64,000 nt of DNA from SAR86 cluster bacterium. GTDB lineage: Bacteria; Pseudomonadota; Gammaproteobacteria; Magnimaribacterales; AG-339-G14. A program made the translations under genes and the position numbers. The stretch covers positions 21,288 to 85,287 of the forward strand of contig CP097974.1 of the NCBI GenBank assembly GCA_023703675.1, given 5' to 3'. The notes beneath the pieces are model-generated. The model did no database searches, had not been told where the DNA came from, and was given only the letters and a program-made list of their open reading frames with translations. Every line of letters begins with the position of its first letter. The first letter of the stretch is position 1. Positions 16,956 to 55,951 of this stretch are shown one piece after another.

Positions 16956-16970
16956 GGATAATAATTATCC
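16956..16970. promoter_or_regulatory. Perfect 7-1-7 palindrome GGATAAT-A-ATTATCC (Fur-box-like) in a divergent promoter region
   Basis: Read directly. The core GATAAT-N-ATTATC equals the Fur 7-1-7 consensus tGATAATnATTATCa. It lies 31 nt upstream of the first paralog ATG and 43 nt upstream of the SNase ATG. Confidence 0.5.
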
Positions 16971-17000
16971 GTTTTTAATTTTTTCAAGGAGAGAACAAAA

Positions 17001-17687
17001 ATGAAAAAAACACTTTTAATTTTAACTTCATTTCTGGCAAGTTTTGTATTTGCAGCTCCAGCGATGAACGTTTTTACAATAAACACAGCAGACCCTATGG
17101 GATACATGGAGTGGGCTAGAGCAAGTGCTCCAATTACCAGTCCTCCCTCTAACACTGCTAGTGGTGGCGTTTGTTTGCCAAGCTTCGGTTCCGAAGAATT
17201 TGGCGACATGTATTTTTACAACGTATACGACAGTCACTCAGATTCACTAAGTGGAAATTATTACGATCCTGAGGTTGCAGCTGAAATTGCAAAAATAGCT
17301 GACAAAAGAACGGTTTCTACCGTTGATCATTACTCCGCTTTAACTCCCGTCGCGGCAGATGTTGAAGTAGGCTCGACGTTCGCAAATTACAACATCAACG
17401 TCTATACCACTACACCGCAAAGATACATTCAAGAACTTGCGACTTACCAAGGCATCGCTCAGGCGAACGGTTTTGAAGATGTTACCCTAGGCGCATTTCA
17501 AATAAATACTGGCGATTACACTGGACAACTTATGGTGACTATACAAGCTCCAACTACAGTTAGGTTAGGAGAGTTTCTTGATGCGAGAGACCAAGACTGG
17601 AATATGGCTGCGGTTGCAAAATTTCCAAAGTTAAGAAAACTTAAAAGAGGCTTCATGATGACTTGTGAAGTTGTCTACGTAAGATAA
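17001..17687 (+). CDS. Exported protein of unknown function, paralog 1 of 3 (tandem ferredoxin-like/NIPSNAP-ABM-like halves)
   Basis: Signal peptide and SD aaggagag. Shares GVC ... G(D/E)M(Y/F) ... LSGNY(Y)DP ... C-terminal Cys with paralog 2. Confidence 0.7.
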   Translation: MKKTLLILTSFLASFVFAAPAMNVFTINTADPMGYMEWARASAPITSPPSNTASGGVCLPSFGSEEFGDMYFYNVYDSHSDSLSGNYYDPEVAAEIAKIADKRTVSTVDHYSALTPVAADVEVGSTFANYNINVYTTTPQRYIQELATYQGIAQANGFEDVTLGAFQINTGDYTGQLMVTIQAPTTVRLGEFLDARDQDWNMAAVAKFPKLRKLKRGFMMTCEVVYVR

Positions 17688-17701
17688 TTTAAGGAGGAAA
17701 T

Positions 17702-18397
17702 ATGAAAAAAATATTAATTTTAGTTACATCGCTAGCAATATCATTTAGTGTGATAGCTCAGCAAGCACCTGAGGGAAGCTTCACTTCCTTTCATGTCAAA
17801 GCAAGTAACCCGACTGAATATACTGAATTCTTAAGAGCAAATGCAGAGCAAGTTTTTGGTTCCCAAGGATCATATGCTGCTGGTGTGTGTATAACCGCAT
17901 CAGGACATAGTTATCCAGGTGAAATGTTTGTATGGAGTGCGTTTTCAAGTTTTGAAGATCAGCTTTCTGGAAATTACGATCCTTACAACGTCCCAAAAAG
18001 ACTCGAGTCTTTGAGAGATCTTGTTTACAGTGCTAACTGGAAGCCACTTAAAGGATTTGAGTTAAGCCCTGGTTTTGAAAGAGCAACAAGAGTCGTTGTT
18101 GCTCCAGAAAATCTACCAGCCTATATAGCTGCAGGAGTTGAAATGGAATCCGCAATCCAAAATGCAGGTCATGATTTTAATCTTGCTATCATGCAATCCA
18201 TAGGTAGTGGGCCCAAAGAAGTTGGCACCTTAATGGTAAGAGGTATTTCTAAAGATGGAGCCGCGGTCGGTCAACTTGTCGATGAGTATTTCGCTGGAGC
18301 TGAATGGGGCAGAGCCTATGATGCTTTTGTAGCTTTACAAGATTCTGTCGTTGCAGACTCTTATGAGGTTTGTGAGCAACTTTATGCAGCTGAATAA
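17702..18397 (+). CDS. Exported protein of unknown function, paralog 2 of 3
   Basis: Signal peptide, SD aaggagga, 14-nt gap to paralog 1, conserved motifs as above. Confidence 0.7.
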   Translation: MKKILILVTSLAISFSVIAQQAPEGSFTSFHVKASNPTEYTEFLRANAEQVFGSQGSYAAGVCITASGHSYPGEMFVWSAFSSFEDQLSGNYDPYNVPKRLESLRDLVYSANWKPLKGFELSPGFERATRVVVAPENLPAYIAAGVEMESAIQNAGHDFNLAIMQSIGSGPKEVGTLMVRGISKDGAAVGQLVDEYFAGAEWGRAYDAFVALQDSVVADSYEVCEQLYAAE

Positions 18398-18414
18398 TTA
18401 ATAAGGAGATTAAA

Positions 18415-19119
18415 ATGAAAAAAATATTATTACTTTTACTACTGTCTAGTGGATTAGTTTTTGCTGACGATCATGGCATGGAAAAGGACACTTACTACGC
18501 TTTCTTTGGAATCGCTGCGAATAATCCTCCTGCGGTTGTTGCTGCAATGGATAAATTCAATGCGTCAGACTGTGGGCAAGCAAGTCCTTCTTCAGTGGCG
18601 TTAATGGGTGAGGCGTTCAATGGCAATGAGCCTTCAACGCACACTTTTGTCGTAACTTACGAAGGTGCTGAAGAAATAGATGAAACGCTATCGATTATAA
18701 ATGCCTGTCCTGAGTACGCTGAGTTTCTAACCGAAATGGCAGCCGTATCAGTACCTACTGAGCAAATTTTAAACAAAGTTGTTTATGAGGTTGGTGACTG
18801 GACTCAAGAGAGAGCCTTTGCAGTTTTTGAAATGAATGTCAGAAACGAAGCCTCTTATTTAGAAGCTTACAAAAAGTTCACTGACGCTTCTGTAGCTAGT
18901 GGACTGCTAACAGGTGCTTTTGGAATACAAAGAGCAATTGCAAGTTCAGAATACACGCACTTTGCTTTCATTGGCGCAGAAAACATGACTGAGCTCATGG
19001 GCTTCATGGACTCTTTAGACATGGACAATCCAGATTTTGCAGAATTTCAAAATTCTGTTCGAAGAAACAGATCTATTGTCAGAAGAGGCATAGTCGTTCC
19101 GATCAAAGGTTGGGACTAA
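18415..19119 (+). CDS. Exported protein of unknown function, paralog 3 of 3 (most divergent)
   Basis: Signal peptide and SD aaggaga. The two halves visibly align with each other: YYAFFGIAA/AFAVFEMNV, THTFVVTYEG/THFAFIGAEN, CPEYAEFL/NPDFAEFQ. Confidence 0.7.
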   Translation: MKKILLLLLLSSGLVFADDHGMEKDTYYAFFGIAANNPPAVVAAMDKFNASDCGQASPSSVALMGEAFNGNEPSTHTFVVTYEGAEEIDETLSIINACPEYAEFLTEMAAVSVPTEQILNKVVYEVGDWTQERAFAVFEMNVRNEASYLEAYKKFTDASVASGLLTGAFGIQRAIASSEYTHFAFIGAENMTELMGFMDSLDMDNPDFAEFQNSVRRNRSIVRRGIVVPIKGWD

Positions 19120-19131
19120 GAAAGCTTAACT

Positions 19132-19162
19132 AAAAAAAGGGAGCTATTAGCTCCCTTTTTTT
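19132..19162. terminator. Bidirectional rho-independent terminator
   Basis: aaaaaaaGGGAGCTattAGCTCCCttttttt between the convergent paralog operon and rmuC. Confidence 0.8.
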
Positions 19163-20048
19163 ATTCGTCTTTCAATTCTTCGGTTCCTTTATTAAGTTCT
19201 CTTCCTAGAACGTTTATGCGTGTTTGCAAGGCAGTTACTTCTTTTACGGAAGCGTCAAGTCTTTTTAAAACTCCATCTGTGCTTTTATCGAAACTATCAA
19301 ATTGAGATTTAATTCTTCGCACAACTTCAGCTACTTTCGCTGCAGTTTCGTTTAATTGTAAATAGTGATGCCCGATTCTAATGGTGTCTAAAAAAGCAGC
19401 TAACGTATTAGGACCTTGAATTAATACTTTTTTTTCTGACAAACAGTCCTGTCTTAAGTTTTCAATTTCATCGACAAGATCAATTAGTTTTTCAGAAGCA
19501 ATATAAAGCACAGCATAGTTCGTAGTTGAATTTTTACGCAGGTATTTGCTTGCAATGTCATCGGCGTCTCTTAAGATTGCTGTCCTCAAGTCTCTCAAAA
19601 CGTTGGCTCTCAGATTTGCTTGACCGGCTTCCTGGTATTGTTTGTACTGACCTGCGTAAAATTTCGAATCGATTGGGATGGTAATTCCGTCTGCAGTTTT
19701 TACTGCGCAATCTACTCTGTCCTGATTTTCTGGGTTGATGTTCTCTTGGAATGCGTAACTACCATCGGGCAATATTTCTTTCACGATGGATTCTAAACTC
19801 CATTCGCCTAGTCGTCCCGTCGTAACATTTCCACCTAAGAACCGATTTAATTCGTTAATTGGCGTTGTAACAGATGCAAGTTGGTTTTCGATATCGTTGA
19901 GATCTTTTGAAACCGAATCAATTTTATTTTCGAGTATTTCAGTTTGTCCTGAATCTTTTTGATCTTGATCTCTTAGACGAAGAAATATAAAAATCACCAC
20001 TCCAAGCGTAAACAAAGATAAAACAAGAGTTAGTAAAGAAAAGTCCAT
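19161..20048 (-). CDS. rmuC: DNA recombination protein RmuC (short form)
   Basis: N-terminal TM, short coiled coil, then an RmuC nuclease-like core (RVDCAVKTADGITIPIDSKF ... AVLYIASE). At 295 aa it is shorter than the ~475-aa enterobacterial protein. Confidence 0.75.
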   Translation of the reverse strand: MDFSLLTLVLSLFTLGVVIFIFLRLRDQDQKDSGQTEILENKIDSVSKDLNDIENQLASVTTPINELNRFLGGNVTTGRLGEWSLESIVKEILPDGSYAFQENINPENQDRVDCAVKTADGITIPIDSKFYAGQYKQYQEAGQANLRANVLRDLRTAILRDADDIASKYLRKNSTTNYAVLYIASEKLIDLVDEIENLRQDCLSEKKVLIQGPNTLAAFLDTIRIGHHYLQLNETAAKVAEVVRRIKSQFDSFDKSTDGVLKRLDASVKEVTALQTRINVLGRELNKGTEELKDE

Positions 20049-23498: not shown

Positions 23499-25010
23499 TT
23501 ATTTTTTTGATTCTTCTACTAGATTAACAATCTTTTCGTGAATTATGGGCGCAGTATTTGGACCCAAAGACACAACTTCGCCATAAGTTTCTTCATCCTC
23601 TCCATAGATCCAAGGAGCATCATTGTCCCATTCACTTTTTGGGATAATGTACCCAATGGAATCATTCGCTAAATTCACCATCAAGTTAAGTTTGTTGGGA
23701 AAATGACTTCGCAAATGTGGAACTTCCTGAGGAGCCAAGTCGTAATCAGCGCCGTTAGGATTTTCAATGCCCCCAACAGCAATTTCTGGATAGAGTTCTC
23801 CAGGGACGCCGGTAATAGATGCGTCTCCTAATTGTATGAATGCCACTTCGCTGAGATAACGAATAAATGGAGGTATCAGACTAAATTTTAAATCAGAATC
23901 AATAACGCCAAGCAAGGTGCCTATTGAAAGCATGAAGTTTTCTATACCCAACTCTATCTCTATTGAGCGCACTGTAAGAGATGGATTTGGAGATGCCTCG
24001 AAATTGCCGGCATCAAAAGCTTCTATGACGCTACTTGCTAAGCTATATCCATATGCGCGTGCTTTGGCATGACTTGGTTTGGTGAGTGTTTTTTTCAAAA
24101 CAGGATCATAAATTGGATCGGTCGGTCCTGAAGTCATCAAGCCTCCAATATTTCCGGTAAGCCATAACGTGGTACCACCAAGCCCAGGTTTAATTAGCTG
24201 ATCGTCGTAATAAATACCTTCACTAATACCTCTTCTTAAGTAGCCTGCAACGTCAGAAGTTAATTCAAGATTTTTATCCCAAGTAAGTTCGACGTGAATT
24301 CCAAAATTAATCAACGAACCTATGATTGAACCATCGGGGCGATTGAACAAAATCGCTCTGATGTCATCGTCTATCACGATGGGTTTTCGTTTATCTTTAA
24401 TTGGTGTGAGAGGATTTGTTGATATTAAAGCTAGGCTCATTTGGGCGGGTTCCAAGTTATCTATAGCCATTTCCAATGCGCTTATGAAATTTTTTTTAAG
24501 CCGCTCCATATAAACATCGTCAACACCGCTTTTTAAAAATTTTGGACCCCAAAGACCTTGAGTGTCTGGGCCTTCGTGATTATGGGTTGCATGCACCATG
24601 ACGTAATCTAGGCCCCACTCTGCCGGGATTTCCTCACGGACACTAAGAACAAATTTTCGCATTAAACCGATTGTGTCAGCACTTATAATTCCTATCCGAG
24701 TTTGACCGTCATCAATCACCGCCGCTACCGCCATGAGATCATCTTTAACACCCTGGGCGGCTCGTTTATTTTGAAAACCTGCCATCCACACAGCGTCGAA
24801 TTGGTTATTACCGTTGACATCGGTCCACTTATCAATGTCTGGATCAAATTGAGCGTCGTTATTTACATCTTCCCATTCATCGATAATATTGGGCGTAATT
24901 GAGAGCTCAGCAAATCCGACTTGAAATTCGTTTGCATGAAGTTGAACAGATAAAACAATCCCAAACATCGTAAAAATGTAAAGTTTGTTTTTTAAGAAGC
25001 TAGAACTCAT
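23499..25010 (-). CDS. Secreted hydrolase resembling the neutral/alkaline ceramidase N-terminal domain family
   Basis: Signal peptide, AELSITPN near the N-terminus, and a VMVHATHNHEGPD motif analogous to ceramidase ATHTHSGP. The start lies 36 bp downstream of the giant gene's stop. Confidence 0.5.
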   Translation of the reverse strand: MSSSFLKNKLYIFTMFGIVLSVQLHANEFQVGFAELSITPNIIDEWEDVNNDAQFDPDIDKWTDVNGNNQFDAVWMAGFQNKRAAQGVKDDLMAVAAVIDDGQTRIGIISADTIGLMRKFVLSVREEIPAEWGLDYVMVHATHNHEGPDTQGLWGPKFLKSGVDDVYMERLKKNFISALEMAIDNLEPAQMSLALISTNPLTPIKDKRKPIVIDDDIRAILFNRPDGSIIGSLINFGIHVELTWDKNLELTSDVAGYLRRGISEGIYYDDQLIKPGLGGTTLWLTGNIGGLMTSGPTDPIYDPVLKKTLTKPSHAKARAYGYSLASSVIEAFDAGNFEASPNPSLTVRSIEIELGIENFMLSIGTLLGVIDSDLKFSLIPPFIRYLSEVAFIQLGDASITGVPGELYPEIAVGGIENPNGADYDLAPQEVPHLRSHFPNKLNLMVNLANDSIGYIIPKSEWDNDAPWIYGEDEETYGEVVSLGPNTAPIIHEKIVNLVEESKK

Positions 25011-25046
25011 GAAAATTATTCTCTATTTTTTGAATTCGTTCTTTCT

Positions 25047-28000
25047 TTATTGAAAGTTCCACAACAACTCAAGCGAACAAACTTCTGAGGACAAGAGATC
25101 ATCGTCAGAAATGTTCGAGAAGTCAGATTGGTAAGTAGACTTGCCTTGCCACCTACAACCTATATTAGTCGAGATGTTAGGGGAAATTTGAAGCATCAAA
25201 CCTAAATCAACTTCCCAATTATGAGTTTTCAATCCATCGTCCAGCTCCAATAGATAATTCACACTCGGCCCTTCTAAGTTGTAATACATATTCTGACTAG
25301 AAGTTTTCGAGTAATCAAAGCCATATTCTAGGGTCAAATATGGCATAGCGTTGTATTTTGATTCCGCAAAAAGATAGCTGATATCGGTTCCAATTGATGC
25401 TTTGGCATTTGATAGTGTTAGCTCATCAAATGTCAATGCAGCCTCACCCCCAGTTTCACTATATTTATCAAACTCGGTGTGTGAGCCATCAATTCTAAGA
25501 TAAGGAGAAACCAGCCAGTTGGTATTTTTACTGCTTAATGAACGAACGAAGGCGAGCGATCCAAATAGCTGATTCGCATCTCTTTCTCCTTTCAAGAGCT
25601 CTTTCCTATCTACTCGGTCTGAGCTAAATTCTAATTTACTAACTCCAAAAATAAATTGTAACGATCTATTTCTATTATCGAATTTGCCGTACGTTGAAAG
25701 GCTATAATTTTTGGACTCTACGTGAGAGTTATGGCTTCTGTCTTTTGGCTTGGTTTCTCCTAGGCCCAAGGCAAAACCAAACATATCGCCATCGTCACTA
25801 AATAACTTATCGATACCAATGTGAAAAGATTTTTCATCCAGAACTCTTGGGTTTGGCTTAGTTTTCCCAAGCGTCAATTCTCCAAAATCACCATCAATCC
25901 ATACCGACCAATCGCCAATCACTTCTTTTAGTTCTCCACCAGCCGTCACTTTCACCGGGTCTGATACAAATTCTTTGACGGCTGATTTAAATTGCTCTGT
26001 GTTTTGGAAGCCCTCAGCCGTTTCTTGGTCGTTGTACACATTCGAATTTTCAACATCAGGATTTGTGTCTTCAAAACCTGTGTTTTGATTGTAGCGTTGT
26101 GGTGCAACGATAGGTGCTGAGTAATTAGGATCATCAAAATCCGTTACGCAGAACTTACTGGCATTTGGATCTGTCCACGCTTCTAAATTGTCTGTCAGTG
26201 TATGGGTATAAACCAAATTGTTGCCTAGTAGTGAGTTAGAAGATTCTAAGAGGGTCACAATAACTTTCCTGTCTCCAGGATTGAAACCAAATTTGTCTTG
26301 CGAAATACCATCAACCATAATGAAGGCAGATTTGAGCCCAGCTTCTATATTTAATAAGCCTTCCCCAAGCGAGAAGCTCTCATTGTCTGAGGAGCCGGTA
26401 ATATTAAAATCCACAACGATATCTTCATCCGCAATTTTAGATAAATGCACTTTTATCCTCAGAGCTGAAGCAGTTTTAGGACCACTAGAATTGATCGTAC
26501 AAAACTCTACTATCGGCTCTTCAACAAAATTTATATCAAGTGGCTCCTCAACAAAATCAACATCTGGCTCTTCAACAAAATCACTTTCAGGCTCGCTTTC
26601 TCTTATAGTTTTAACTGAATCAATAATTTTATTTTCAAAGTTGACCCTAAACCCTTGTCGCGAAGATGCCATCATTCGTTTGGAAAGCACATTAACATTT
26701 TGATCCACCCAGCGTGTTGCGATCTGATTCATGGCTTTTGCATTATCAATTACTGGCTGCTTAAGAGTCGGATCAGTCAATTCAATACGAGTTTTAAAAT
26801 TAAATTTTGTTTTGTCACTGATGCCTTCATAAGAATTACCAAAAGCGTCCTCAAATGCAGTATTTTCAATTAGCACGTAATATTCTTTTTCATACTCAAG
26901 ATCCGTGGGAAGGTTAATTTTAATAATCTCTGCCCCACAACCAGTGACGATTTCACTAGATAAGTTGACAGTAAAAGAAAAAGAATTATCGGACGACTTA
27001 ATATCAATTGTGCCTGACTTACAATTTACAACTTTGTTAAACGTCAAAATAATGTCGCTATTTATAGGAACGCCAGTGCTGTTGTCTTGAGGGCTGGTGG
27101 TTGTCAAAATCGGGTTTGTATCATCACCATCTGCCAATATTGTGTGAGTATAAACATAGTCATCACCTAAGGTTGCATTAGTTGGATTAGATAAAGTAAC
27201 GATAATCGTTTCGTTTTCCTCTACGAGTCCATCATCAACAATACCAGTTATTGTAATAGTGCCACTTGTTGCGCCAGCACTAATAGTTAAGGTGCCATTG
27301 GCCATGGTATAATCGGTGCCAGAACCGGTGGCGGTGCCCGTCACAATATAATCAACCGTCACGTCTTGTCCTGAAGCTGCCGATAAATCGACCGTGAGAG
27401 CTTTGGAAGAAACCGATTCAGCTCCATTTGAACTAGTGGTATTGAAATCAACTATTGGCGCGTTGTCATTATCATTAATCGTAAAAGTATGAACAATATC
27501 GTTCCCAAGGGTTGCGTTAACTGGGTTAGACAAAGTGATAATTATTGTTTCATCAGCTTCGTCCGCCGAGTCGTCAATAATCGAAGGGATAAGTATTGTT
27601 CCACTTGTTGCCCCCTCCTCAATAAGCACGCTGCCAGATGACAATGTAAAGTCGATGCCCGATCCGGCAGTACCCCCGGTAACCGCATAATCAACGCCAA
27701 CCTGTTGTTCAGATGCAAAGGGAATAACAACAGTTAATGACCTTGAAACAACTGATTCGGAATCGGCAGAAGCCGTAGTAGAAAATTCTATTGCTGGAAT
27801 GCCGTCATTATCTTTGATGGTATAGGTGTGGACACTATCGCTTCCAAGTACGGCATTGCTTGGTCCCGATAAAGTTATGATCACCGTTTCATTTCCTTCT
27901 ATAGACTCGTCATCAACAATACCAGTTATTGTAATAGTGCCACTTGTTGCACCAGCATTTATGGTCAAGCTGCCATTGGCCAAAGTGTAATCAGTGCCCG

Positions 28001-31000
28001 AGCCTGTAGCTGTGCCTGTCACGGCATAATTCACGGTAACGTTATTACTCGAAGCTGCAGATAAATAAACGGTTAAGGCAACCGATGATACATCTTCAGC
28101 ACCAGATGAACTTGAATTACCAAAATCGATTGAAGGCAGACCATCATCATCTGTAATAGTATAAGTGTGCACGTCATTACTGCCCAGAGTTGCGTTACTA
28201 GGACTAGATAAAGTAACAATTACCGTCTCATCAGCTTCATCCGTGGTGTCATTAATAATATTTGCAATTGTGATAGTGCCTGTCGTTCTACCTGAAGGAA
28301 TGCTTAATGTTCCATTCCCCAAAGTGTAATCTGTACCAGATCCGGTGGCCGTTCCTGTGACTGCATAATCGACTGTTACGGTTTCGCCTGAAGGTCCAGA
28401 TAAATTTACCGTCAGAGCTTTTGAGGATACTGATTCAGCTCCACTTGAGCTGGTAGCATTAAAGTCAATGGTTGGGGTATTGTCATTATCATTAATGGTG
28501 TAAGTATAGATGCTGTCGCCACCCAAAATTGCATTACTTGGATTGGATAGTGTCAGTACAACCGTTTCATTGGCTTCGTCGAGAAAATCGTCAACAATAC
28601 TCGCAATAGTGATCGTTCCAGTTGTAGAACCTGCATTAATCGTAAGAGTCCCACTTCCAAGAGTGTAATCGGTACCAGAGCCAGTGGCAGTTCCGGTCAC
28701 CACATAATCAATCGTGACATCTTGTCCTGAGGCTGCTGATAGATCTACTGTAATGGTTTCGGAAGATGTAGATTCAGCTCCACTTGAACTGGTAGCATTA
28801 AAGTCAATGGTTGGGGTATTGTCGTTATCAGTGATCGTATAAGTATGAACGCTGTCACTTCCCAATGTTGCATTGCTAGGACTTGATAACGTAACAATCA
28901 CTGTTTCATTGGCTTCGTCCAAAGCATCATTGACAATGCTTGCAATGGTGATGGTGCCAGCTGTTGATCCAGCACTTATCGTTAGAGTACCATTGGCCAA
29001 AGTGTAATCGGTGCCCGATCCAGTTGCGGTTCCAGTGACCGCGTAACTAACGGTTACGTTTTGACTCGACTCAGCAGATAAGTCAACGGTTAAACCCGCA
29101 GATGAAACTGATTCAGCTCCGCTCGAACTGGTGGTATTGAAGTCAATGGTTGGGGTGTTTTCATCATCATTAATAGTATAAGTGTGAGCACTGTCACTAC
29201 CCAAGGTTGCATTGCTAGGATTTGACAAAGTAACAATGACCGTCTCATTTGGTTCATCTATGGAATCATCAATGATCCCTGCAATTGTAATAGTTCCAGT
29301 TGTTGCACCTGCACTTATAGTGAGAGTTCCATTGGCTAGTGTGTAATCGGTACCAGAGCCAGTGGCAGTTCCGGTCACGGTATAATCAACTGTCACGTCC
29401 TGACTTGAAGCAGCAGATAAATCAACAGCCAAATTGGCAGAAGAAACTGATTCGGCATCACTTGAACTCGTAGCATTGAAGTCAACTACTGGAGGATTGT
29501 CATCGTCATTAATAGTATAGGTATGAACGCTGTCACTGCCCAAAGTCGCATTGTTTGGATTCGACAAAGTGACAATGACTGTCTCATTGGCCTCGTCAGC
29601 CGCATCATCAATAATCCCTGCAATTGTAATAGTTCCAGTTGTTGCACCTGCACTGATGGTTAGGGTGCCATTGGCTAAAGTGTAATCGGTACCAGAGCCA
29701 GTGGCAGTCCCAGTCACTGCGTAATCAATGGTCACGTCTTGTCCTGAAGCTGCCGATAAATCGACTGTAAGAGGTTTGGAAGAAACTGATTCAGCCCCGC
29801 TCGAACTGGTTTCATTAAAATCAACCACTGGAGCATCGTCATTGTCAGTGATGGTGTAAGTATGAGCATCATCACTTCCCAAGGTTGCATTGTTAGGACT
29901 TGATAGAGTAACGATCACCGTCTCATTAGCTTCATCGATGGAGTCGTTAACAATGCTACCGATTGTAATAGTCCCGCTTGATGCACCTGCACTAATGGTT
30001 AAGGTGCCATTGGCCAAAGTGTAATCGGTACCGAAGCCAGTAGCAGTTCCAGTCACCGCGTAATTAACAGTGACGCTTTGCCCTGAAATTGCCGATAAAT
30101 CTACGGTCAAATCCGCAGAAGAAACTGATTCAGCTCCACTCGAACTGGTTGCATTAAAATCAATTACTGGAGGATTGTCATTGTCAGTAATGGTGTAAGT
30201 GTGAACGCTATCACTTCCTAAGGTTGCATTGCTTGGACTTGATAGAGTAACGATCACCGTCTCATTAGACTCATCGATTGAGTCATCGATAATGCTGGAT
30301 ATATCGATGGTTCCAGATGTTGCGCCCGCACTAATGGTTAAGGTGCCATTGGCTAGAGAGTAATCGGTCCCAGAGCCAGTGGCTGTCCCCGTCACCGCAT
30401 AATTAACGGTCACGTCTTGTCCCGAAGCTGCTGATAAATCTACTGTTAAAGATTTAGAAGAAACTGATTCTGCTCCGCTCGAACTAGTAGTATTGAAATC
30501 GACTACTGGCGGATTGTCGTTGTCATTGATCGTGTAAGTGTGAACAAGAATAGAGCCCGCATCCGCGTTTGATGGATTAGATAAGGTGATAACGACAGTT
30601 TCGTTCAACTCATCCAAAGAGTCATTGATAATACTGCCAATTGTAATTGTCGTTGATGTCGAGCCGGCTGCAATAGTAGCAGTACCATTGGCCAAAGTGT
30701 AATCGGTACCCGATCCAGTGGCTGTACCCGTCACCGCATAATTAACAGTTACATCTTGCCCCGAGGTTGCCGATAGATTGATCGCGATGGCTTTAGAAGA
30801 AGTAGATTCAGCTCCGCTTGAAGTGGCATCAGCAAAAGATATATTCCTGTCTCCTACTGGCTCCAAAATTGTGAACGTGTGAACATTATCACTGCCTAAC
30901 GTTGCATTACTGGGGCTTGATAGAGTAAGAATGACGGTCTCACTTCCTTCGGTAACTCCATCATCGACAATTCCAGCTATTGTAATAGTTCCTGTTGTCG

Positions 31001-34000
31001 ATCCTGCATTTATGGTGAGAGACGCATCGGCTAAAGTGTAATCGGTGCCTGATCCAGTTGCAGTTCCAGTTACCGCGTAATTAACGGTCACGTTTTGTGC
31101 TGAAACTGCGGATAAATTGACTGTAACAGCTTTGGTAGAAACGGATTCTGCCCCGCTTGAACTAGTCAACTCAAAATCAACCACTGGAGCATTGTCATTG
31201 TCTGTGATGGTATAAGTATGAGCATCATCACTGCCTAATGTGGCATTGTTAGGACTTGATAAAGTAACAATGATTGTCTCATTAGCTTCATCTAGAGAGT
31301 CATCAACAATACTGCCAATTGTAATTGTCGTTGATGTTGATCCGGCTGCGATAGTCGCAGTGCCATTAGCCAAAGTGTAATCAGTACCCGATCCAGTTGC
31401 TGTTCCAGTTACCGCATAATTAACGGTCACGGTTTGACTAGAAGCTGCCGATAAATCCACTGTAAGAGCTTTTGACGATACCGATTCAGTACCATTCGAA
31501 CTGGTTTCATTAAAATCAACTACTGGAGGATTGTCATCATCTGTGATGGTGTAAGTATGAGCATCATCACTGCCTAAAGTGGCATTGGTAGGACTTGATA
31601 GAGTAACGATTACCGTTTCATTGGCTTCGTCAAGAGAGTCGTTAACAATTCCTGCAATGGTGATCGTGCCAGACGTCGACCCAGCACTTATGGTTAAGGT
31701 GCCATTGGCCAAAGTATAATCTGTGCCAGAACCAGTGGCCGTTCCGGTCACCGCATAATCGACGGTCACGTCTTGTCCTGAAGCTGCCGATAAATCCACT
31801 GTAAGAGCTTTTGACGATACAGATTCATTTCCATTTGAACTGGTTTCATTAAAATCAACCACTGGCGGATTGTCATTGTCAGTAATGGTGTAAGTGTGAA
31901 CATCGTCACTGCCCAAAGTCGCATTGCTTGGATTCGACAAAGTAACGACTACAGTTTCATTGGCTTCATCCAAAGCATCATTAATAATGCTCGCAATTGT
32001 AATAGTGCCAGATGTTGCGCCTGCGCTAATGGTTAGGGTGTTATTGGCCAAAGTGTAATCAGTACCCGAACCAGTGGCAGTTCCGGTCACGGCAAAATCA
32101 ACAGTCACGGTTTGACTGGATGCTGCTGATAAATCTACTGTAAGAGCTTTGGAAGAAACTGATTCAGCTCCGGTCGAGCTAGTAATGTTGAAGTCAACTA
32201 CTGGCGGATTGTCATTGTCAGTAATTGTGTAAGTATGAACGCTGTCACTTCCTAACGTGGCATTGCTTGGATTCGATAAAGTAACGATGACTGTCTCATT
32301 CAATTCGTCTAGACCATCATCGACAATCCCTGCAATTGTAATAGTTCCAGATGTCGCGCCTGCACTTATGGTAAGAGTGTCATCGGCTAGTGTGTAATCA
32401 GTACCAGAGCCGCTTGCAGTTCCTGTCACTACATAATCAACAGTAACGTTTTGAATGGATGAAGCAGATAAATCTACCGTAATGGCTTTGGATGATACTG
32501 ATTCAGCTCCACTGGAACTCGTGGTATTGAAATCAACTACTGGCGGATTGTCATTGTCAGTAATCGTGTATGTATGAGCATCATCACTGCCTAAAGTGGC
32601 GTTGATAGGGCTCGATAAGGTAACGATCACCGTTTCATTAGCCTCATCAATTGAGTCATCGACAATCCCTGCAATTGTTATAGTTCCTGATGTTGCGCCA
32701 GCACTAATAGTAAGCGTTCCGTTCGCCAAAGTGTAATCGGTGCCAGAGCCTGTAGCCGTTCCGGTCACAGCATAATCAACGGTTACGTCTTGTCCTGAGG
32801 CTGCCGACAAATCGACCGTAAGAGGTTTAGAAGATACCGATTCGGCTCCACTCGAACTAGTAGTGTTGAAGTCAACCACCGGCGGATTGTCATTGTCAGT
32901 AATGGTGTAGGTATGAACGCTGTTGCTACCCAAAGTCGCATTGCTAGGGCTTGATAAAGTTAGAATGACGGTTTCATTGGTTTCGTCTAAAGAGTCATTG
33001 ACAATGCTAGCAATAGTAATCGTCGTTGATGTAGAACCAGCTGTAATAGTTGCAGTGCCATTAGCAAGAGTGTAATCGGTACCAGAGCCAGTCGCGGTTC
33101 CGGTCACGGCATAATTTACTGTCACGTTTACGTTCGATGCAGCAGATAAATCTACCGTGATGGCCTTAGAAGCAACAGTCTCAGCTCCATTCGAGCTGAT
33201 AGTGTTGAAGTCAACTACTGGCGGATTGTCATTGTCATTTATTGTGTAAGTATGAACGCTATCATTTCCCAAAGTGGCATTGCTAGGATTCGATAAAGTA
33301 ACGATGACCGTCTCATTGGCTTCATCAAAAGAATCGTTAACAATACTGCCAATCGTAATAGTCCCACTTGTTGCGCCAGCGTTTATCGTTAAGGTGCCAT
33401 TGGCTAGGGTGTAATCGGTGCCGGAGCCAGTGGCAGTTCCGGTCACCACGTAATCGACGGTCACGTTCTGGCTTGACGCAAATGATAAATCCACAGTTAA
33501 TGCTGCAGAGGAAACCGATTCGGCTCCATTAGAGCTAGTAATGTTAAAATCAATAGTTGGATTGGCTGCTCTAGTTATAACTCGGATAAAGTCACCTGGC
33601 TTACCGTTTTTTGCACCAAACCTTAATGTTCTCTTGTCAGAGCCAATAGAGACCCAATCACCAGATGTAGTTGAGGCTGTTGTACTGCTGCCATAATGAA
33701 CATGGTTTTCTGTCTGTCTTGCACTGAAACCACTATTGCCCGAGTTTGGATAGACTGCATTATCTTTATCGACTTCGGGAAAGGCGACAGTCATCGAAGG
33801 GTCTGTCCAGTAGCCCAATATTTCGTTTTCAAATACTATCTGACCAATCTTTGAGGTTCGATCGGTGCCACTGTTGTGATCGTCGTTGATAAAAACTAGG
33901 TAAGAATTAGCTGGGGTATTCCCAAAATGAATCGAAGTTGCACTTCCAGTTGGCACGTAACCAAGACCACTAAAGTTATAGGTAGTGGTGCATTGAGAGA

Positions 34001-34247
34001 CAGTTTGGCCTTGTTGACAAATATTTGTTCTCTCAGGAACAATTATAAAGTCTTCTCCCGAAGAAGATCTTTGGCTGCCGTTTTTGTCTTGTTTTCTAGC
34101 CTTTAAATTAGTGGCACCAGGAATAATTTCTACATATGAATTAACGCTCGCAATACCATTTGCGTTGGCTTGTGTAGATAAAAATCCAGCAAATACTAAA
34201 ATTACTCCAATAAAGACGCACTTAAATAAATCCTGTCTTACTTTCAT
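25047..34247 (-). CDS. Giant (3066 aa) surface protein. Order: signal peptide, unknown N-domain, 19 tandem Calx-beta-like units, Ig-like (SbsA_Ig-type) domain, acidic DFVEEP microrepeat, one degenerate Calx-beta unit, C-terminal autotransporter-type beta-barrel
   Basis: Repeats carry VT(V)DYAVTGTATGSGTDYTL ... GTITI..IVDDS.DE.NETV.VTLS.P.NATLG. The C-terminal ~300 aa has alternating beta-strand patterns (GFALGLG, YSLSTYGKF, PYLTLEYGF) and ends in LELLWNF. Confidence 0.85.
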   Translation of the reverse strand: MKVRQDLFKCVFIGVILVFAGFLSTQANANGIASVNSYVEIIPGATNLKARKQDKNGSQRSSSGEDFIIVPERTNICQQGQTVSQCTTTYNFSGLGYVPTGSATSIHFGNTPANSYLVFINDDHNSGTDRTSKIGQIVFENEILGYWTDPSMTVAFPEVDKDNAVYPNSGNSGFSARQTENHVHYGSSTTASTTSGDWVSIGSDKRTLRFGAKNGKPGDFIRVITRAANPTIDFNITSSNGAESVSSAALTVDLSFASSQNVTVDYVVTGTATGSGTDYTLANGTLTINAGATSGTITIGSIVNDSFDEANETVIVTLSNPSNATLGNDSVHTYTINDNDNPPVVDFNTISSNGAETVASKAITVDLSAASNVNVTVNYAVTGTATGSGTDYTLANGTATITAGSTSTTITIASIVNDSLDETNETVILTLSSPSNATLGSNSVHTYTITDNDNPPVVDFNTTSSSGAESVSSKPLTVDLSAASGQDVTVDYAVTGTATGSGTDYTLANGTLTISAGATSGTITIAGIVDDSIDEANETVIVTLSSPINATLGSDDAHTYTITDNDNPPVVDFNTTSSSGAESVSSKAITVDLSASSIQNVTVDYVVTGTASGSGTDYTLADDTLTISAGATSGTITIAGIVDDGLDELNETVIVTLSNPSNATLGSDSVHTYTITDNDNPPVVDFNITSSTGAESVSSKALTVDLSAASSQTVTVDFAVTGTATGSGTDYTLANNTLTISAGATSGTITIASIINDALDEANETVVVTLSNPSNATLGSDDVHTYTITDNDNPPVVDFNETSSNGNESVSSKALTVDLSAASGQDVTVDYAVTGTATGSGTDYTLANGTLTISAGSTSGTITIAGIVNDSLDEANETVIVTLSSPTNATLGSDDAHTYTITDDDNPPVVDFNETSSNGTESVSSKALTVDLSAASSQTVTVNYAVTGTATGSGTDYTLANGTATIAAGSTSTTITIGSIVDDSLDEANETIIVTLSSPNNATLGSDDAHTYTITDNDNAPVVDFELTSSSGAESVSTKAVTVNLSAVSAQNVTVNYAVTGTATGSGTDYTLADASLTINAGSTTGTITIAGIVDDGVTEGSETVILTLSSPSNATLGSDNVHTFTILEPVGDRNISFADATSSGAESTSSKAIAINLSATSGQDVTVNYAVTGTATGSGTDYTLANGTATIAAGSTSTTITIGSIINDSLDELNETVVITLSNPSNADAGSILVHTYTINDNDNPPVVDFNTTSSSGAESVSSKSLTVDLSAASGQDVTVNYAVTGTATGSGTDYSLANGTLTISAGATSGTIDISSIIDDSIDESNETVIVTLSSPSNATLGSDSVHTYTITDNDNPPVIDFNATSSSGAESVSSADLTVDLSAISGQSVTVNYAVTGTATGFGTDYTLANGTLTISAGASSGTITIGSIVNDSIDEANETVIVTLSSPNNATLGSDDAHTYTITDNDDAPVVDFNETSSSGAESVSSKPLTVDLSAASGQDVTIDYAVTGTATGSGTDYTLANGTLTISAGATTGTITIAGIIDDAADEANETVIVTLSNPNNATLGSDSVHTYTINDDDNPPVVDFNATSSSDAESVSSANLAVDLSAASSQDVTVDYTVTGTATGSGTDYTLANGTLTISAGATTGTITIAGIIDDSIDEPNETVIVTLSNPSNATLGSDSAHTYTINDDENTPTIDFNTTSSSGAESVSSAGLTVDLSAESSQNVTVSYAVTGTATGSGTDYTLANGTLTISAGSTAGTITIASIVNDALDEANETVIVTLSSPSNATLGSDSVHTYTITDNDNTPTIDFNATSSSGAESTSSETITVDLSAASGQDVTIDYVVTGTATGSGTDYTLGSGTLTINAGSTTGTITIASIVDDFLDEANETVVLTLSNPSNAILGGDSIYTYTINDNDNTPTIDFNATSSSGAESVSSKALTVNLSGPSGETVTVDYAVTGTATGSGTDYTLGNGTLSIPSGRTTGTITIANIINDTTDEADETVIVTLSSPSNATLGSNDVHTYTITDDDGLPSIDFGNSSSSGAEDVSSVALTVYLSAASSNNVTVNYAVTGTATGSGTDYTLANGSLTINAGATSGTITITGIVDDESIEGNETVIITLSGPSNAVLGSDSVHTYTIKDNDGIPAIEFSTTASADSESVVSRSLTVVIPFASEQQVGVDYAVTGGTAGSGIDFTLSSGSVLIEEGATSGTILIPSIIDDSADEADETIIITLSNPVNATLGNDIVHTFTINDNDNAPIVDFNTTSSNGAESVSSKALTVDLSAASGQDVTVDYIVTGTATGSGTDYTMANGTLTISAGATSGTITITGIVDDGLVEENETIIVTLSNPTNATLGDDYVYTHTILADGDDTNPILTTTSPQDNSTGVPINSDIILTFNKVVNCKSGTIDIKSSDNSFSFTVNLSSEIVTGCGAEIIKINLPTDLEYEKEYYVLIENTAFEDAFGNSYEGISDKTKFNFKTRIELTDPTLKQPVIDNAKAMNQIATRWVDQNVNVLSKRMMASSRQGFRVNFENKIIDSVKTIRESEPESDFVEEPDVDFVEEPLDINFVEEPIVEFCTINSSGPKTASALRIKVHLSKIADEDIVVDFNITGSSDNESFSLGEGLLNIEAGLKSAFIMVDGISQDKFGFNPGDRKVIVTLLESSNSLLGNNLVYTHTLTDNLEAWTDPNASKFCVTDFDDPNYSAPIVAPQRYNQNTGFEDTNPDVENSNVYNDQETAEGFQNTEQFKSAVKEFVSDPVKVTAGGELKEVIGDWSVWIDGDFGELTLGKTKPNPRVLDEKSFHIGIDKLFSDDGDMFGFALGLGETKPKDRSHNSHVESKNYSLSTYGKFDNRNRSLQFIFGVSKLEFSSDRVDRKELLKGERDANQLFGSLAFVRSLSSKNTNWLVSPYLRIDGSHTEFDKYSETGGEAALTFDELTLSNAKASIGTDISYLFAESKYNAMPYLTLEYGFDYSKTSSQNMYYNLEGPSVNYLLELDDGLKTHNWEVDLGLMLQISPNISTNIGCRWQGKSTYQSDFSNISDDDLLSSEVCSLELLWNFQ
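27120..33563 (-). repeat. Coding tandem repeat array: 19 units of 339 nt (113 aa), Calx-beta-like
   Basis: Period counted from the translated sequence. The first unit starts at about aa 229 (NPTIDFN) and the last ends at about aa 2376 (ILADGDD). Long near-identical DNA stretches recur, e.g. gtgccattggccaaagtgtaatcggt. Confidence 0.85.
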
Positions 34248-55788: not shown

Positions 55789-55951
55789 AGCCTTCAGAGT
55801 ACAGTTCTTGCTTTAGTTTTCTCAAGCCGCTTTTTGTTTTCAGGTAAAGCTCCTCAAGGGAGGTAAGAAAGCTTGGAAGTCTTTTGGGCCCTAGAATAAT
55901 TAAGGAAATAAGACAGATAATTAATATCTCAAAGAAACCAATGTCGAACAT
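55751..55951 (-). CDS. tatB: Sec-independent translocase TatB (minimal 66-aa form)
   Basis: MFDIGFFEILIICLISLIILGPKRLP, the TatA/B N-terminal TM plus hinge. Much shorter than the 171-aa E. coli TatB. Confidence 0.75.
   Translation of the reverse strand: MFDIGFFEILIICLISLIILGPKRLPSFLTSLEELYLKTKSGLRKLKQELYSEGFDDQNKDDDQGK

Follow-up and report, generated by a model that had tools for sequence, protein, structure and literature searches.

The three consecutive genes P1, P2, and P3 of a SAR86 gammaproteobacterium (Table 1) very probably form a tandem array of diverged exported paralogs, each of which is a single-chain "dimeric alpha+beta barrel" (DABB), and this array has been reshaped by duplication and recombination. 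They represent a real exported ABM-like family, with no characterized member to date, and they are not a three-component system. We propose that P1, P2, and P3 are exported by the Sec pathway and would reside in the periplasm as proteins of ∼210 aa once the signal peptide is removed, each being built from two fused ferredoxin-like beta-alpha-beta-beta-alpha(alpha)-beta halves with probably one disulfide. They would belong to a broad superfamily of exported proteins and lipoproteins of marine bacteria, in which the only solved relative is 2PGC. The array would have gained and lost members by duplication and by recombination between near-identical gene starts, which would explain why the number of members ranges from one to three among SAR86 lineages. 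As for the function, we infer, only tentatively, that the proteins work independently of one another, either as periplasmic binders of small hydrophobic or aromatic organic compounds imported by SAR86 or as cofactor-independent ABM-like enzymes (of the oxygenase, isomerase, or cyclase type) acting on them, with specificities that differ between the paralogs. When identity, evolution, and function are taken together, we regard the explanation as evenly poised between right and wrong.

The window, i.e., the whole stretch of DNA analyzed here, has a length of 64 kb. The three ORFs of the array are codirectional, with gaps of 14 nt between P1 and P2 and of 17 nt between P2 and P3, and Shine-Dalgarno sites are located 7 to 9 nt ahead of each ATG (AAGGAGAG, AAGGAGG, and AAGGAGA for P1, P2, and P3, respectively). 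The signal peptides are typical of Sec substrates, with MKK, a hydrophobic stretch, and an A-x-A-like site. One terminator closes the array, and the convergent rmuC gene ends at 19161. A preliminary description of this DNA had listed the Shine-Dalgarno sites, the gaps, the signal peptides, and the terminator, and we see each of them in the sequence; from the gene spacing, we infer that P1-P2-P3 are cotranscribed as an operon. An Rfam scan of the window yielded no RNA family and hence no known riboswitch at the locus. No Cys is present in the signal peptides of P1, P2, and P3, and we rejected a lipoprotein reading for the three proteins on this ground. Some distant relatives in the family do carry lipoboxes.

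TABLE 1 Features of the array and of its flanks, in positions of the window (dot, no strand)
Feature	Position	Strand	Description
Perfect palindrome GGATAATAATTATCC	16956-16970	.	Within the intergenic region (87 bp) between divergent genes; 31 nt ahead of the P1 ATG
Shine-Dalgarno site of P1, AAGGAGAG	16986-16993	+	Read from the sequence; conserved in orthologous loci
P1	17001-17687	+	ORF, 228 aa, exported (predicted)
P2	17702-18397	+	ORF, 231 aa, exported (predicted)
P3	18415-19119	+	ORF, 234 aa, exported (predicted)
D18-D19-H20 codons	18466-18474	+	Predicted mature P3 N terminus Asp-Asp-His; candidate ATCUN-type Cu(II)/Ni(II) site
Stem-loop flanked by runs of A and T	19131-19163	.	Bidirectional, intrinsic-terminator-like; common to the array and the convergent rmuC

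Comparison of P1 and P2 by BLASTP gave 33% identity over the N-terminal 95 aa (E value of 7e-13), and profile comparison with hhalign revealed homology over the full length (99.2%, E value of 3.6e-19). The region aligned by BLASTP includes the motifs GVC, G(D/E)M(Y/F), and LSGNY(Y)DP, which had been noted earlier together with two conserved Cys; the latter are invariant in each family (C58/C222 in P1 and C63/C224 in P2; 34 sequences). C63 and C224 are found in beta2 and beta4', respectively, of the P2 model, and C53 and C98 of P3 are invariant within its close family. One disulfide would probably stabilize each array protein. Cleavage is predicted after A18 in P1, giving a mature protein that starts with APAMNVFTIN, and after A19 in P2.

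P3 is internally duplicated. Its N half (residues 24 to 128; 18484-18798) and C half (residues 129 to 234; 18799-19116) matched each other by BLASTP with an E value of 0.002, and hhalign aligned their profiles over 101 columns (99.7%, E value of 3.4e-25), recovering exactly the register in which the halves had previously been aligned by eye. A TH motif is conserved where beta3 starts in both halves (H76 and H182), and the P3 family as a whole has TH/NG motifs that are symmetric between the halves, including two near-invariant His. The relationship of P3 to P1/P2 reached only 22 to 24% with shallow profiles and 93.9% (E value of 1.6e-7, 186 in-register columns) with signal peptides removed and a P3 profile of 97 sequences. 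P3, described at first as a more distant paralog, is thus a remote homolog of P1 and P2.

We then analyzed the predicted structures of the proteins. AlphaFold2 models of P2 (pLDDT of 88.7 and pTM of 0.82) and P3 (pLDDT of 84.5 and pTM of 0.80), which were based on shallow alignments (16 sequences in one case and 34 in the other), each contain two beta-alpha-beta-beta-alpha(alpha)-beta units. The best Foldseek match of both models was 2pgc, with TM scores of 0.68/0.75 for P2 and 0.70/0.78 for P3. Following it were the tandem ABM-like "putative monooxygenases" 3f44 and 3mcs, the anthrone-oxidase-like 5f9p, PenE, SOR, and Cld/ChdC. More than 80 PDB entries matched at an E value of ≤1e-3, and all among the matches listed have the DABB fold; in a viral structure library, the best match was an ABM monooxygenase, and nothing beyond this ABM-like match was found. 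These results place the P2 and P3 models in the DABB superfamily, and P1, whose fold would be that of P2, is included by homology to P2. Fused ferredoxin-like halves and a barrel of the ABM/NIPSNAP type, as the preliminary description had proposed, are therefore borne out by structure prediction, Foldseek, and profile comparisons, and none of these gave an unrelated fold without internal duplication.

The closest structure, 2PGC, is the structural-genomics (JCSG) structure of a marine metagenome protein from the Global Ocean Sampling (GOS) survey (jcvi_pep_1096685590403). It resembles the array proteins in its equal size, its single-chain two-domain barrel, and its marine origin, and it superimposes on the P2 and P3 models over ∼215 columns with TM scores of 0.67 to 0.70 (query) and 0.74 to 0.78 (target) and an rmsd of 3.3 to 3.7 Å. 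Unlike the P3 family, 2PGC lacks the TH histidines, and the sequence identity is ∼10%. Searches of the PDB with close-family sequence profiles returned noise only, and the extended P3-family profile retrieved 2pgc alone (E value of 0.0011, 21.9 bits), in register over 167 residues. On the basis of this profile match and of the closest structure, the array proteins belong to a 2PGC-like marine family, as remote members at ∼10% identity. 2PGC was among five representatives of novel GOS families that were solved (PMC2557142). No function is known for 2PGC that could be transferred to the array proteins, and the literature searched on 2PGC, DUF6854, periplasmic or marine ATCUN, and SAR86 barrel proteins or metaproteomes contained no functional information.

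The family comprises 269 representatives at 50% identity; almost all of them have a length of 220 to 250 aa and a signal peptide, and lipoboxes occur in a few. The related loci were gathered with the close-family alignment A1. A 5,347-aa match from the deep search (P0205) was treated as spurious, as the extended HMM did not recover it. Scans of P1, P2, and P3 against Pfam and NCBIfam gave nothing above threshold. The only Pfam signal was DUF6854 (PF21614), a single-domain model of 96 positions that matches only the N half of P3 (residues 36 to 108 against profile positions 14 to 84; E value of 2.3e-4) and whose score of 21.9 bits is below the gathering cutoff of 27, so that P3 is not assigned to it. 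DUF6854 gave no match to P1 or P2 at an E value of ≤10, matched 7 of 50 diverse P3-family members at an E value of <0.01, is precomputed for two close homologs, and was not mentioned in the literature searched. The earlier statement that the proteins fall into no named family was hence nearly right, apart from this subthreshold match of P3. The ABM and NIPSNAP profiles of Pfam matched none of the three proteins at an E value of ≤10, and none is assigned to these families; NIPSNAP weakly matched 1 of 50 distant P3 relatives (4e-4). The resemblance of the array proteins to ABM and NIPSNAP is structural only.

Ranking next after 2PGC, the tandem ABM-type proteins 3F44, 3MCS, 5F9P (anthrone oxidase-like), and 9KDP (PenE) also consist of two fused ferredoxin-like halves, with a similar length, and they match the P2 and P3 models with TM scores of 0.52 to 0.67 and an rmsd of 4.5 to 6 Å. 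The known ABM enzymes act in the cytoplasm, where they tailor secondary metabolites; the array proteins, in contrast, are exported by Sec, have putative disulfides, and occur as arrayed paralogs. The cofactor-free chemistry of the ABM type is compatible with a periplasmic location; the periplasm contains neither NAD(P)H nor ATP, which for a barrel of this fold favors such chemistry or simple binding. SOR (2CB2, 3BXV, and 6QPA) likewise combines two ferredoxin-like halves in a barrel and gave TM scores of 0.62 to 0.70 by query and ∼0.5 by target, with no sequence similarity. SOR has functionally important Cys and His. It differs from the array proteins in having ∼308 aa, a cytoplasmic location, 24-mer cages, and a 2-His-1-carboxylate iron site.

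Stress-responsive Dabb proteins also have a dimeric alpha+beta barrel fold, and the array proteins could accordingly be noncatalytic envelope proteins with a stress-related or structural role, similar to the plant SP1/Dabb "stress-responsive" barrels and without a specific ligand. Their abundance in metagenomes, where the clusters have 100 to 186 members, and their variable copy number agree with such a role. However, the P2 family has many invariant polar or aromatic residues (Y40, D93, R105, K114, K117, E126, E149, H157, R180, D194, and Y228) that persist across 38 to 100% identity; they argue, as do the symmetric TH/NG motifs of the P3 family, that the proteins have a specific site and are not just a scaffold. 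Moreover, the Dabb profile of Pfam did not match P1, P2, or P3 even at an E value of 10. We consider this role highly improbable and tentatively favor periplasmic binders or ABM-like enzymes.

The preliminary description had also noted a Fur-like operator ahead of the array and suggested a periplasmic iron- or heme-related role. The palindrome is real: GGATAATAATTATCC, with its core GATAATAATTATC at 16957 to 16969, is perfect, and GATAATNATTATC is the sole exact copy in the window. It resembles a Fur site of the 7-1-7 type (12/14) and agrees at 14/19 positions with the 19-bp E. coli Fur consensus, which may not be that of SAR86; this score is the best in the window but is tied with six other sites. 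The next-best 7-1-7-like site in the window lies near tatC. The left arm, GGATAAT, which probably serves as the −10 box, is conserved among close relatives. The right arm differs in the close relatives L007 and L009 to L012; it is degraded in L007, L009, L010, and L012, and L011 has a second perfect version of the palindrome, GGATAATGATTATCC. The motif is lacking in other SAR86 lineages that have the same array. The palindrome thus stood as a sequence feature, and its reading as a Fur operator was weakened by the variable right arm, by the absence from other lineages, and by the tied consensus score.

A Fur-repressed operon of periplasmic proteins for heme or iron handling (by binding, by degradation, or as Cld/DyP-like enzymes), induced under iron limitation, would be consistent with a perfect palindrome, unique in the window, that overlaps the likely −10 box and recurs as a second perfect version in L011. 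It would also be consistent with the two near-invariant His of the P3 family and with the presence of Cld/ChdC/HemQ among the Foldseek matches. Cld, ChdC, and DyP, like the array proteins, carry two ferredoxin-like domains on a single chain of ∼230 to 250 aa, and some Clds are periplasmic. The proximal heme His of Cld/ChdC is located in the C-terminal domain, on one of its helices, and Cld also has a distal Arg. By contrast, H76 and H182 of P3 are at the starts of beta3 and beta3', and the alignment of P1 with P2 contains no invariant His in common. Cld/ChdC gave many Foldseek matches, but with TM scores of only ∼0.5, an rmsd of 5 to 7 Å, and no sequence similarity. We therefore do not assign the array proteins to Cld/ChdC/DyP, and the similarity seen with the models is generic fold likeness only. 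IsdG-type heme oxygenases, which are characterized by an Asn/Trp/His catalytic triad and by heme held between the sheet and the helices, had no sequence match and were absent from the top 50 Foldseek matches. In none of the contexts examined were family members adjoined by iron, heme, or TonB genes, and export proceeds via Sec and not via Tat. With the unconserved palindrome, the neighborhoods, and the lack of an invariant His in P1/P2, the iron or heme role finds no specific support, and we consider a Fur-repressed heme or iron operon quite unlikely.

We then looked into the composition of the array in other genomes. In SAR86 chromosomes, the array occupies a fixed slot between an SNase gene and RmuC-DsbB-PolA, and we found in this slot P1-P2-P3, P1-P3, P2-P3'-P3, P2-P2'-P3, P3'-P3, P2-P3, or P3 alone; each array seen includes the P3 type. 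In L008, a close relative, the P2 gene is cleanly missing, and the P2 and P3 genes have an identical 15-nt start. Outside SAR86, family genes are mostly solitary, including 39 loci in which a solitary P2-type gene has at least 1 kb on both sides. Conservation of the triplet as a unit, whose absence the preliminary description had named as speaking against its reading, was thus not found: one to three genes of differing types are present at the same locus. This distribution also bears on the possibility that P1, P2, and P3 are subunits of one hetero-oligomeric periplasmic assembly, such as a Cld-like ring or a SOR-like cage, and are tightly coexpressed for this reason. The short gaps with one shared terminator, the repeated succession of a P2-type and a P3-type gene in several SAR86 lineages, and the deposition of 2PGC with five chains would fit such an assembly, as would the oligomeric nature of the relatives SOR and Cld. 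However, the absence of P2 from L008, the lineages with P3 alone or with two P3-type genes, and the 39 solitary P2-type genes argue against it, and we find a hetero-oligomer very doubtful compared with independently acting paralogs.

The neighbors of the solitary genes are varied and often encode oxygenases or hydrolases (PhyH, 2OG oxygenase, FMO, alpha/beta hydrolases, ceramidase, amidohydrolase, and acyl-CoA dehydrogenases), a theme that may reflect only the general gene content of these genomes. Clustering of 330 neighboring ORFs from 80 metagenomic loci revealed no conserved neighbor, only lineage-level synteny blocks. The 178-aa and 197-aa proteins encoded downstream of P2 homologs (L003 and L024) are related neither to each other nor to the family, and the 197-aa neighbor, which is His rich, had no match in Pfam, NCBIfam, or the PDB.

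If cleaved after A17, as predicted, P3 starts with D-D-H. An ATCUN (amino-terminal Cu(II)/Ni(II)-binding) motif consists of a free N-terminal amine and a His at mature position 3, with no Pro at position 2. Residues 1 to 22 of P3 have a pLDDT of <50 in the model, and the N-terminal tail is probably disordered. Cleavage sites were predicted with a crude rule, which rewards polar residues after the cut; with it, His was found at +3 in 30/91 P3-family representatives, with at most one at each of positions +4 to +8, and position 2 was D, G, H, or N but never Pro in the cases listed. Most of the distant P2-type members share the X-X-His start, which also occurs on several unrelated exported proteins nearby and may thus be a general trait of the exported proteins of these organisms rather than a family-specific one. 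It is conceivable, though we would not count on it, that the Asp-Asp-His tail of P3, if cut as predicted, would bind Cu(II)/Ni(II) in the ATCUN manner.

Capture or buffering of Cu(II)/Ni(II) in the periplasm could even be the primary role of the proteins, in which case the X-X-His tail would be the site of function, with the barrel serving as a carrier or sensor. The His at exactly +3 in P3-family and distant P2-type proteins points in this direction, as do 12 metagenomic loci in which a P2-type gene is followed by a gene for an exported His-rich protein starting with SSHSHSHDDSDHKH. Yet P1, P2, and many other members, including the P3 orthologs P0012 to P0015, do not have the motif, which is therefore dispensable. 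In addition, the well-conserved residues are in the barrel and not in the tail, no copper or nickel resistance or transport genes are adjacent, and unrelated exported proteins have the same type of N terminus. We consider a primary role in Cu(II)/Ni(II) capture unlikely. We would likewise not expect that the proteins form a class, not recognized before, of periplasmic metalloenzymes or carriers of abundant ocean bacteria, i.e., ABM-like double barrels that recruit Cu(II)/Ni(II) via X-X-His, possibly with the TH histidines, and oxidize or otherwise transform imported organic compounds outside the cytoplasm, the paralogs providing a strain-variable substrate range.

SAR86 is among the most abundant uncultured bacterial groups of the surface ocean, and it makes use of dissolved organic matter through the proteins that it exports. 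At 50% identity, the present superfamily falls into at least 269 clusters, with multiple paralogs per genome and a strain-variable copy number at a fixed locus. If its members are ordinary ABM-like binders, the finding will mainly provide better annotation. The recurrent X-X-His mature N terminus offers a hypothesis on the handling of trace metals in the periplasm of oligotrophic marine bacteria. Assignment of a ligand or a reaction to any member would allow the annotation of hundreds of protein clusters from ocean metagenomes and would provide the orphan structure 2PGC with a function.

P1, P2, and P3, three adjacent genes for exported proteins, have Shine-Dalgarno-like sequences (AAGGAGAG, AAGGAGG, and AAGGAGA, respectively) 7 to 9 nt upstream of their start codons and are separated by gaps of 14 and 17 nt, as read directly from the DNA. 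All three proteins open with MKK and continue with a hydrophobic segment and then an A-x-A-like site, and inspection of the signal region of each revealed no lipobox cysteine. The GC content of the array (0.39 to 0.40) is like that of its surroundings. ORF calling and DNA reading bore out every descriptive point of the preliminary description (ORFs, Shine-Dalgarno sequences, gaps, signal peptides, and terminator), and we infer that the three genes are co-transcribed.

Coordinates of the array and its flanking signals in the window
Feature	Position	Strand	Description
Palindrome GGATAATAATTATCC	16956-16970		Sole copy in the window
P1	17001-17687	+	ORF, 228 aa
P2	17702-18397	+	ORF, 231 aa
P3	18415-19119	+	ORF, 234 aa
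Stem-loop and T-run	19131-19163		Downstream of P3; also terminates convergent rmuC

We then compared the three proteins. P1 and P2 show 33% identity by BLASTP across their first 95 residues (E 7e-13), which cover GVC, G(D/E)M(Y/F), and LSGNY(Y)DP, and the profiles of their families can be aligned from end to end (hhalign, 99.2%, E 3.6e-19). BLASTP of P3 against P1 and P2 found nothing, and shallow profiles gave just 22 to 24%. Once signal peptides were cut off and a 97-sequence P3-family profile was built from the deep-search hits, an in-register alignment of P3 to the P1 and P2 family was obtained across 186 columns (93.9%, E 1.6e-7), and the P3-family HMM, run over all ORFs of the window, had P1 and P2 as its next-best matches. 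Based on these profile alignments, on the HMM ranking, and on the best PDB neighbor common to the P2 and P3 models (see below), we accept the three proteins as homologs, P3 being very distant. The cysteines already pointed out as conserved form pairs that are invariant across 34 sequences in P1 (C58/C222) and P2 (C63/C224); C53/C98 of P3 is invariant in the closer P3 family, and C53 is not kept in the wider superfamily.

The N- and C-terminal halves of P3 match each other by BLASTP (E 0.002) and as profiles (99.7%, E 3.4e-25, 101 columns), the latter alignment reproducing the pairing first made by eye (YYAFFGIAANNPPAVVAAMDKF/AFAVFEMNVRNEASYLEAYKKF, THTFVV/THFAFIG, and CPEYAEFL/NPDFAEFQ). The N-half of the profile, moreover, hit the C-half of relatives P0179, P0207, P0231, P0260, and P0261 in the deep search. 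In P1 and P2, duplication is weakly evident from sequence (31.6%) and is visible in the structural model. AlphaFold2 with family alignments yielded models of P2 (pLDDT 88.7, pTM 0.82) and P3 (pLDDT 84.5, pTM 0.80) that consist, after a signal peptide and tail modeled with low confidence, of two beta-alpha-beta-beta-alpha-alpha-beta units. Foldseek ranked 2PGC first in the PDB for both models (TM 0.67 to 0.70 by query and 0.74 to 0.78 by target, rmsd 3.3 to 3.7 A), followed by the tandem ABM-like "putative monooxygenases" 3F44 and 3MCS, the anthrone-oxidase-like 5F9P, and PenE; sulfur oxygenase reductases and, at a TM of about 0.5, chlorite dismutase/coproheme decarboxylase (Cld/ChdC) came further down. 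The best match in a viral structure library was an ABM monooxygenase. A wider P3-family profile (50 sequences) had exactly one match among PDB sequences, again 2PGC (E 0.0011). JCSG solved five structures from novel Global Ocean Sampling families, and 2PGC, a protein without an assigned function, is among them (PMC2557142). The pseudo-dimeric alpha+beta barrel proposed earlier is therefore confirmed at the level of prediction, by the P2 and P3 models and the Foldseek matches.

The proteins had been said to belong to no named family, which agrees with the lack of Pfam matches for P1 and P2 and of anything meaningful in NCBIfam for all three, but P3 does carry a DUF6854 match (21.9 bits), below the Pfam cut-off of 27. 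All homologs are unnamed metagenomic proteins. An exhaustive profile search gathered 269 cluster representatives (50% identity, E <= 1e-3); almost all span 220 to 250 aa and have signal peptides, and a few have lipoboxes. Of 50 diverse P3-family members, DUF6854 matched 7 and NIPSNAP matched 1. The giant repetitive protein P0205 (5347 aa) had nine stretches matching the C-terminal portion of the P3 profile, which the extended family HMM did not reproduce and which are probably a compositional artifact. The family is already in databases as hypothetical proteins, with a remote orphan structure, a partly overlapping DUF, and a well-known fold. The novelty lies in delimiting an ABM-like superfamily of exported, internally duplicated, and probably disulfide-bearing proteins, with variable paralog arrays in SAR86 and a recurrent ATCUN-like N terminus.

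In SAR86 genomes, to which the window belongs, the array occupies a fixed slot (ADH-SelO-SNase, array, RmuC-DsbB-PolA) with differing content.

Gene content of the array slot
Content	Loci
P1-P2-P3	Window, L007, L009-L012, five metagenomic loci
P1-P3	L008
P2-P3'-P3	L017, L018, L033, L047
P2-P2'-P3	L059-L061
P3'-P3	L013, L015, L016, L019
P2-P3	L001, L026, L028, L034, L035
P3 alone	L014

The triplet is therefore not a co-conserved unit, since the slot holds one to three genes of differing types and P2-type genes are solitary elsewhere (39 such genes beyond the SAR86 array lineage, at loci with at least 1 kb on each side). Clustering of 330 neighboring ORFs found no partner gene beyond lineage-level synteny. 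We consider an obligate hetero-complex of the three proteins very improbable. In the close relative L008, P2 is precisely absent (L008:7960-8045 versus window 17660-17740 and 18370-18455), the P1-P2 spacer leading directly into the P3 body, and the first 15 nt of P2 and P3 of the window are identical (ATGAAAAAAATATTA); this junction and the shared start suggest that paralogs may be gained or lost by recombination between gene starts. Single-cell genome AG-904-A06 encodes a P3 with 100% identity to the one in the window, while the surrounding DNA is just 95.6% identical. Members also lie a few kb apart in some genomes: on the 670-kb metagenomic contig L025, a further P3-superfamily member (L025:11326-12063, 140 bits with the extended HMM) lies 3.6 kb from a P1-type gene, and in L086, L089, and L093 a P3-type gene lies about 4.2 kb from a P2-type gene. 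Arrays and dispersed paralogs thus both occur.

A membrane ceramidase-family gene (PF05875) adjoins P2-type genes in two lineages (L005:4966-5916 and L049:5825-6772), lying upstream of the P2-type gene in one lineage and downstream of it in the second, and PhyH dioxygenase genes recur near family members (L023/L064 and L025); both could reflect chance in lipid-catabolic genomes. Elsewhere in the window (23499-34247, minus strand), genes for two proteins, one of 503 aa that weakly matches neutral ceramidase and one of 3066 aa that contains 19 Calx-beta stretches, sit between polA and a downstream small GTPase gene. In L001, a syntenic SAR86 locus, polA and the GTPase gene are adjacent, so that the segment resembles an insertion of about 10.9 kb, with higher GC (0.44 versus about 0.38).

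The palindrome upstream of P1 had been read as a Fur-like operator. It is real and unique in the window and matches a 7-1-7 motif at 12/14 positions, but its 14/19 match to the Fur 19-mer, an E. coli consensus that may not be that of SAR86, is equaled by six other window sites. In close relatives the left arm and the upstream TATTTTAGTG are invariant and the right arm varies (ATTATC, AATATC, GATGTC, or AATACC), and in more distant SAR86 arrays another AT-rich -10-like element (ACATATTA) lies equally far from the Shine-Dalgarno sequence. For the conserved part, the promoter -10 region is the best explanation, and a Fur or other operator may exist in the subclade of the window. As a control for the Fur argument, the second-best palindrome match (GATAATTAATATC, one mismatch, window 55916-55928) lies on the upstream side of tatC, in the intergenic region that separates it from a PRA-PH gene. 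No Rfam family reached gathering score anywhere in the 64-kb window. The suggested link to iron or heme found no specific support: no iron, heme, or TonB genes adjoin any family member examined, P1 and P2 have no invariant His in common, and the P3 family has its two near-invariant His, one per half, where beta3 starts, which is not where the Cld/ChdC proximal ligand sits. Control of the array by Fur, with a role in heme, is in our view rather improbable.

X-X-His is the sequence definition of the ATCUN Cu(II)/Ni(II) site, and albumin starts with DAH. The predicted cut of P3 (VFA|DDHG) would leave Asp-Asp-His at the mature start, on the low-confidence tail. His occurs at +3 in 30/91 P3-superfamily representatives and in at most one at each of +4 to +8, by a crude cleavage rule that favors polar residues after the cut; typical starts are DDH, DGH, DHH, DNH, and GHH, and distant P2-type proteins mostly start with DHH or DGH. 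The motif is absent from P1 and P2 of the window and from several P3 orthologs, and it also starts neighboring exported ORFs (small control set, 31 ORFs), namely, a His-rich 197-aa protein, a SnoaL-like protein, and one other. A primary role in Cu/Ni buffering is unlikely, and ATCUN-like N termini may be a broader trait of the proteins that these marine bacteria export, judging from sequence. Pfam, NCBIfam, and the PDB gave no match to the 197-aa protein (SSHSHSHDDSDHKH, X-X-His), whose gene immediately follows a P2-type gene at 12 metagenomic loci (L046:6764-7357; L039-L045, L055, L072, L092, and L095); in that lineage, it could act as a partner that binds metal. The other two control-set proteins with X-X-His after the predicted cut (L071:3112-3639 and L012:13089-13571) are unrelated to the family and encoded near its members, one starting with AHHEAGEKHA and having a weak SnoaL_2 hit and the other starting with GGHK.

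Export, the tandem dimeric alpha+beta barrel fold, the conserved Cys pairs, the conserved polar site residues, and paralog turnover at the locus are either observed or strongly predicted, and we hold the account of identity and evolution with high confidence. The polar residues lie at a specific site in P1 and P2 (Y40, D93, R105, D194, and Y228) and, in P3, comprise the helix 1 N-cap and, in both halves, NG...TH; a non-catalytic stress protein is the least probable of the roles that we weighed. We tentatively propose, as a possible role, that P1, P2, and P3 would act as independent periplasmic binders or cofactor-free ABM-like enzymes for small organic molecules, because their nearest characterized structural relatives are ABM-type enzymes, because the periplasm has no nucleotide cofactors, because members often adjoin lipid- or xenobiotic-catabolic oxygenases and hydrolases (a weak argument), and because genes that set substrate range typically vary in copy number between strains. 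The paralogs would then differ in specificity.
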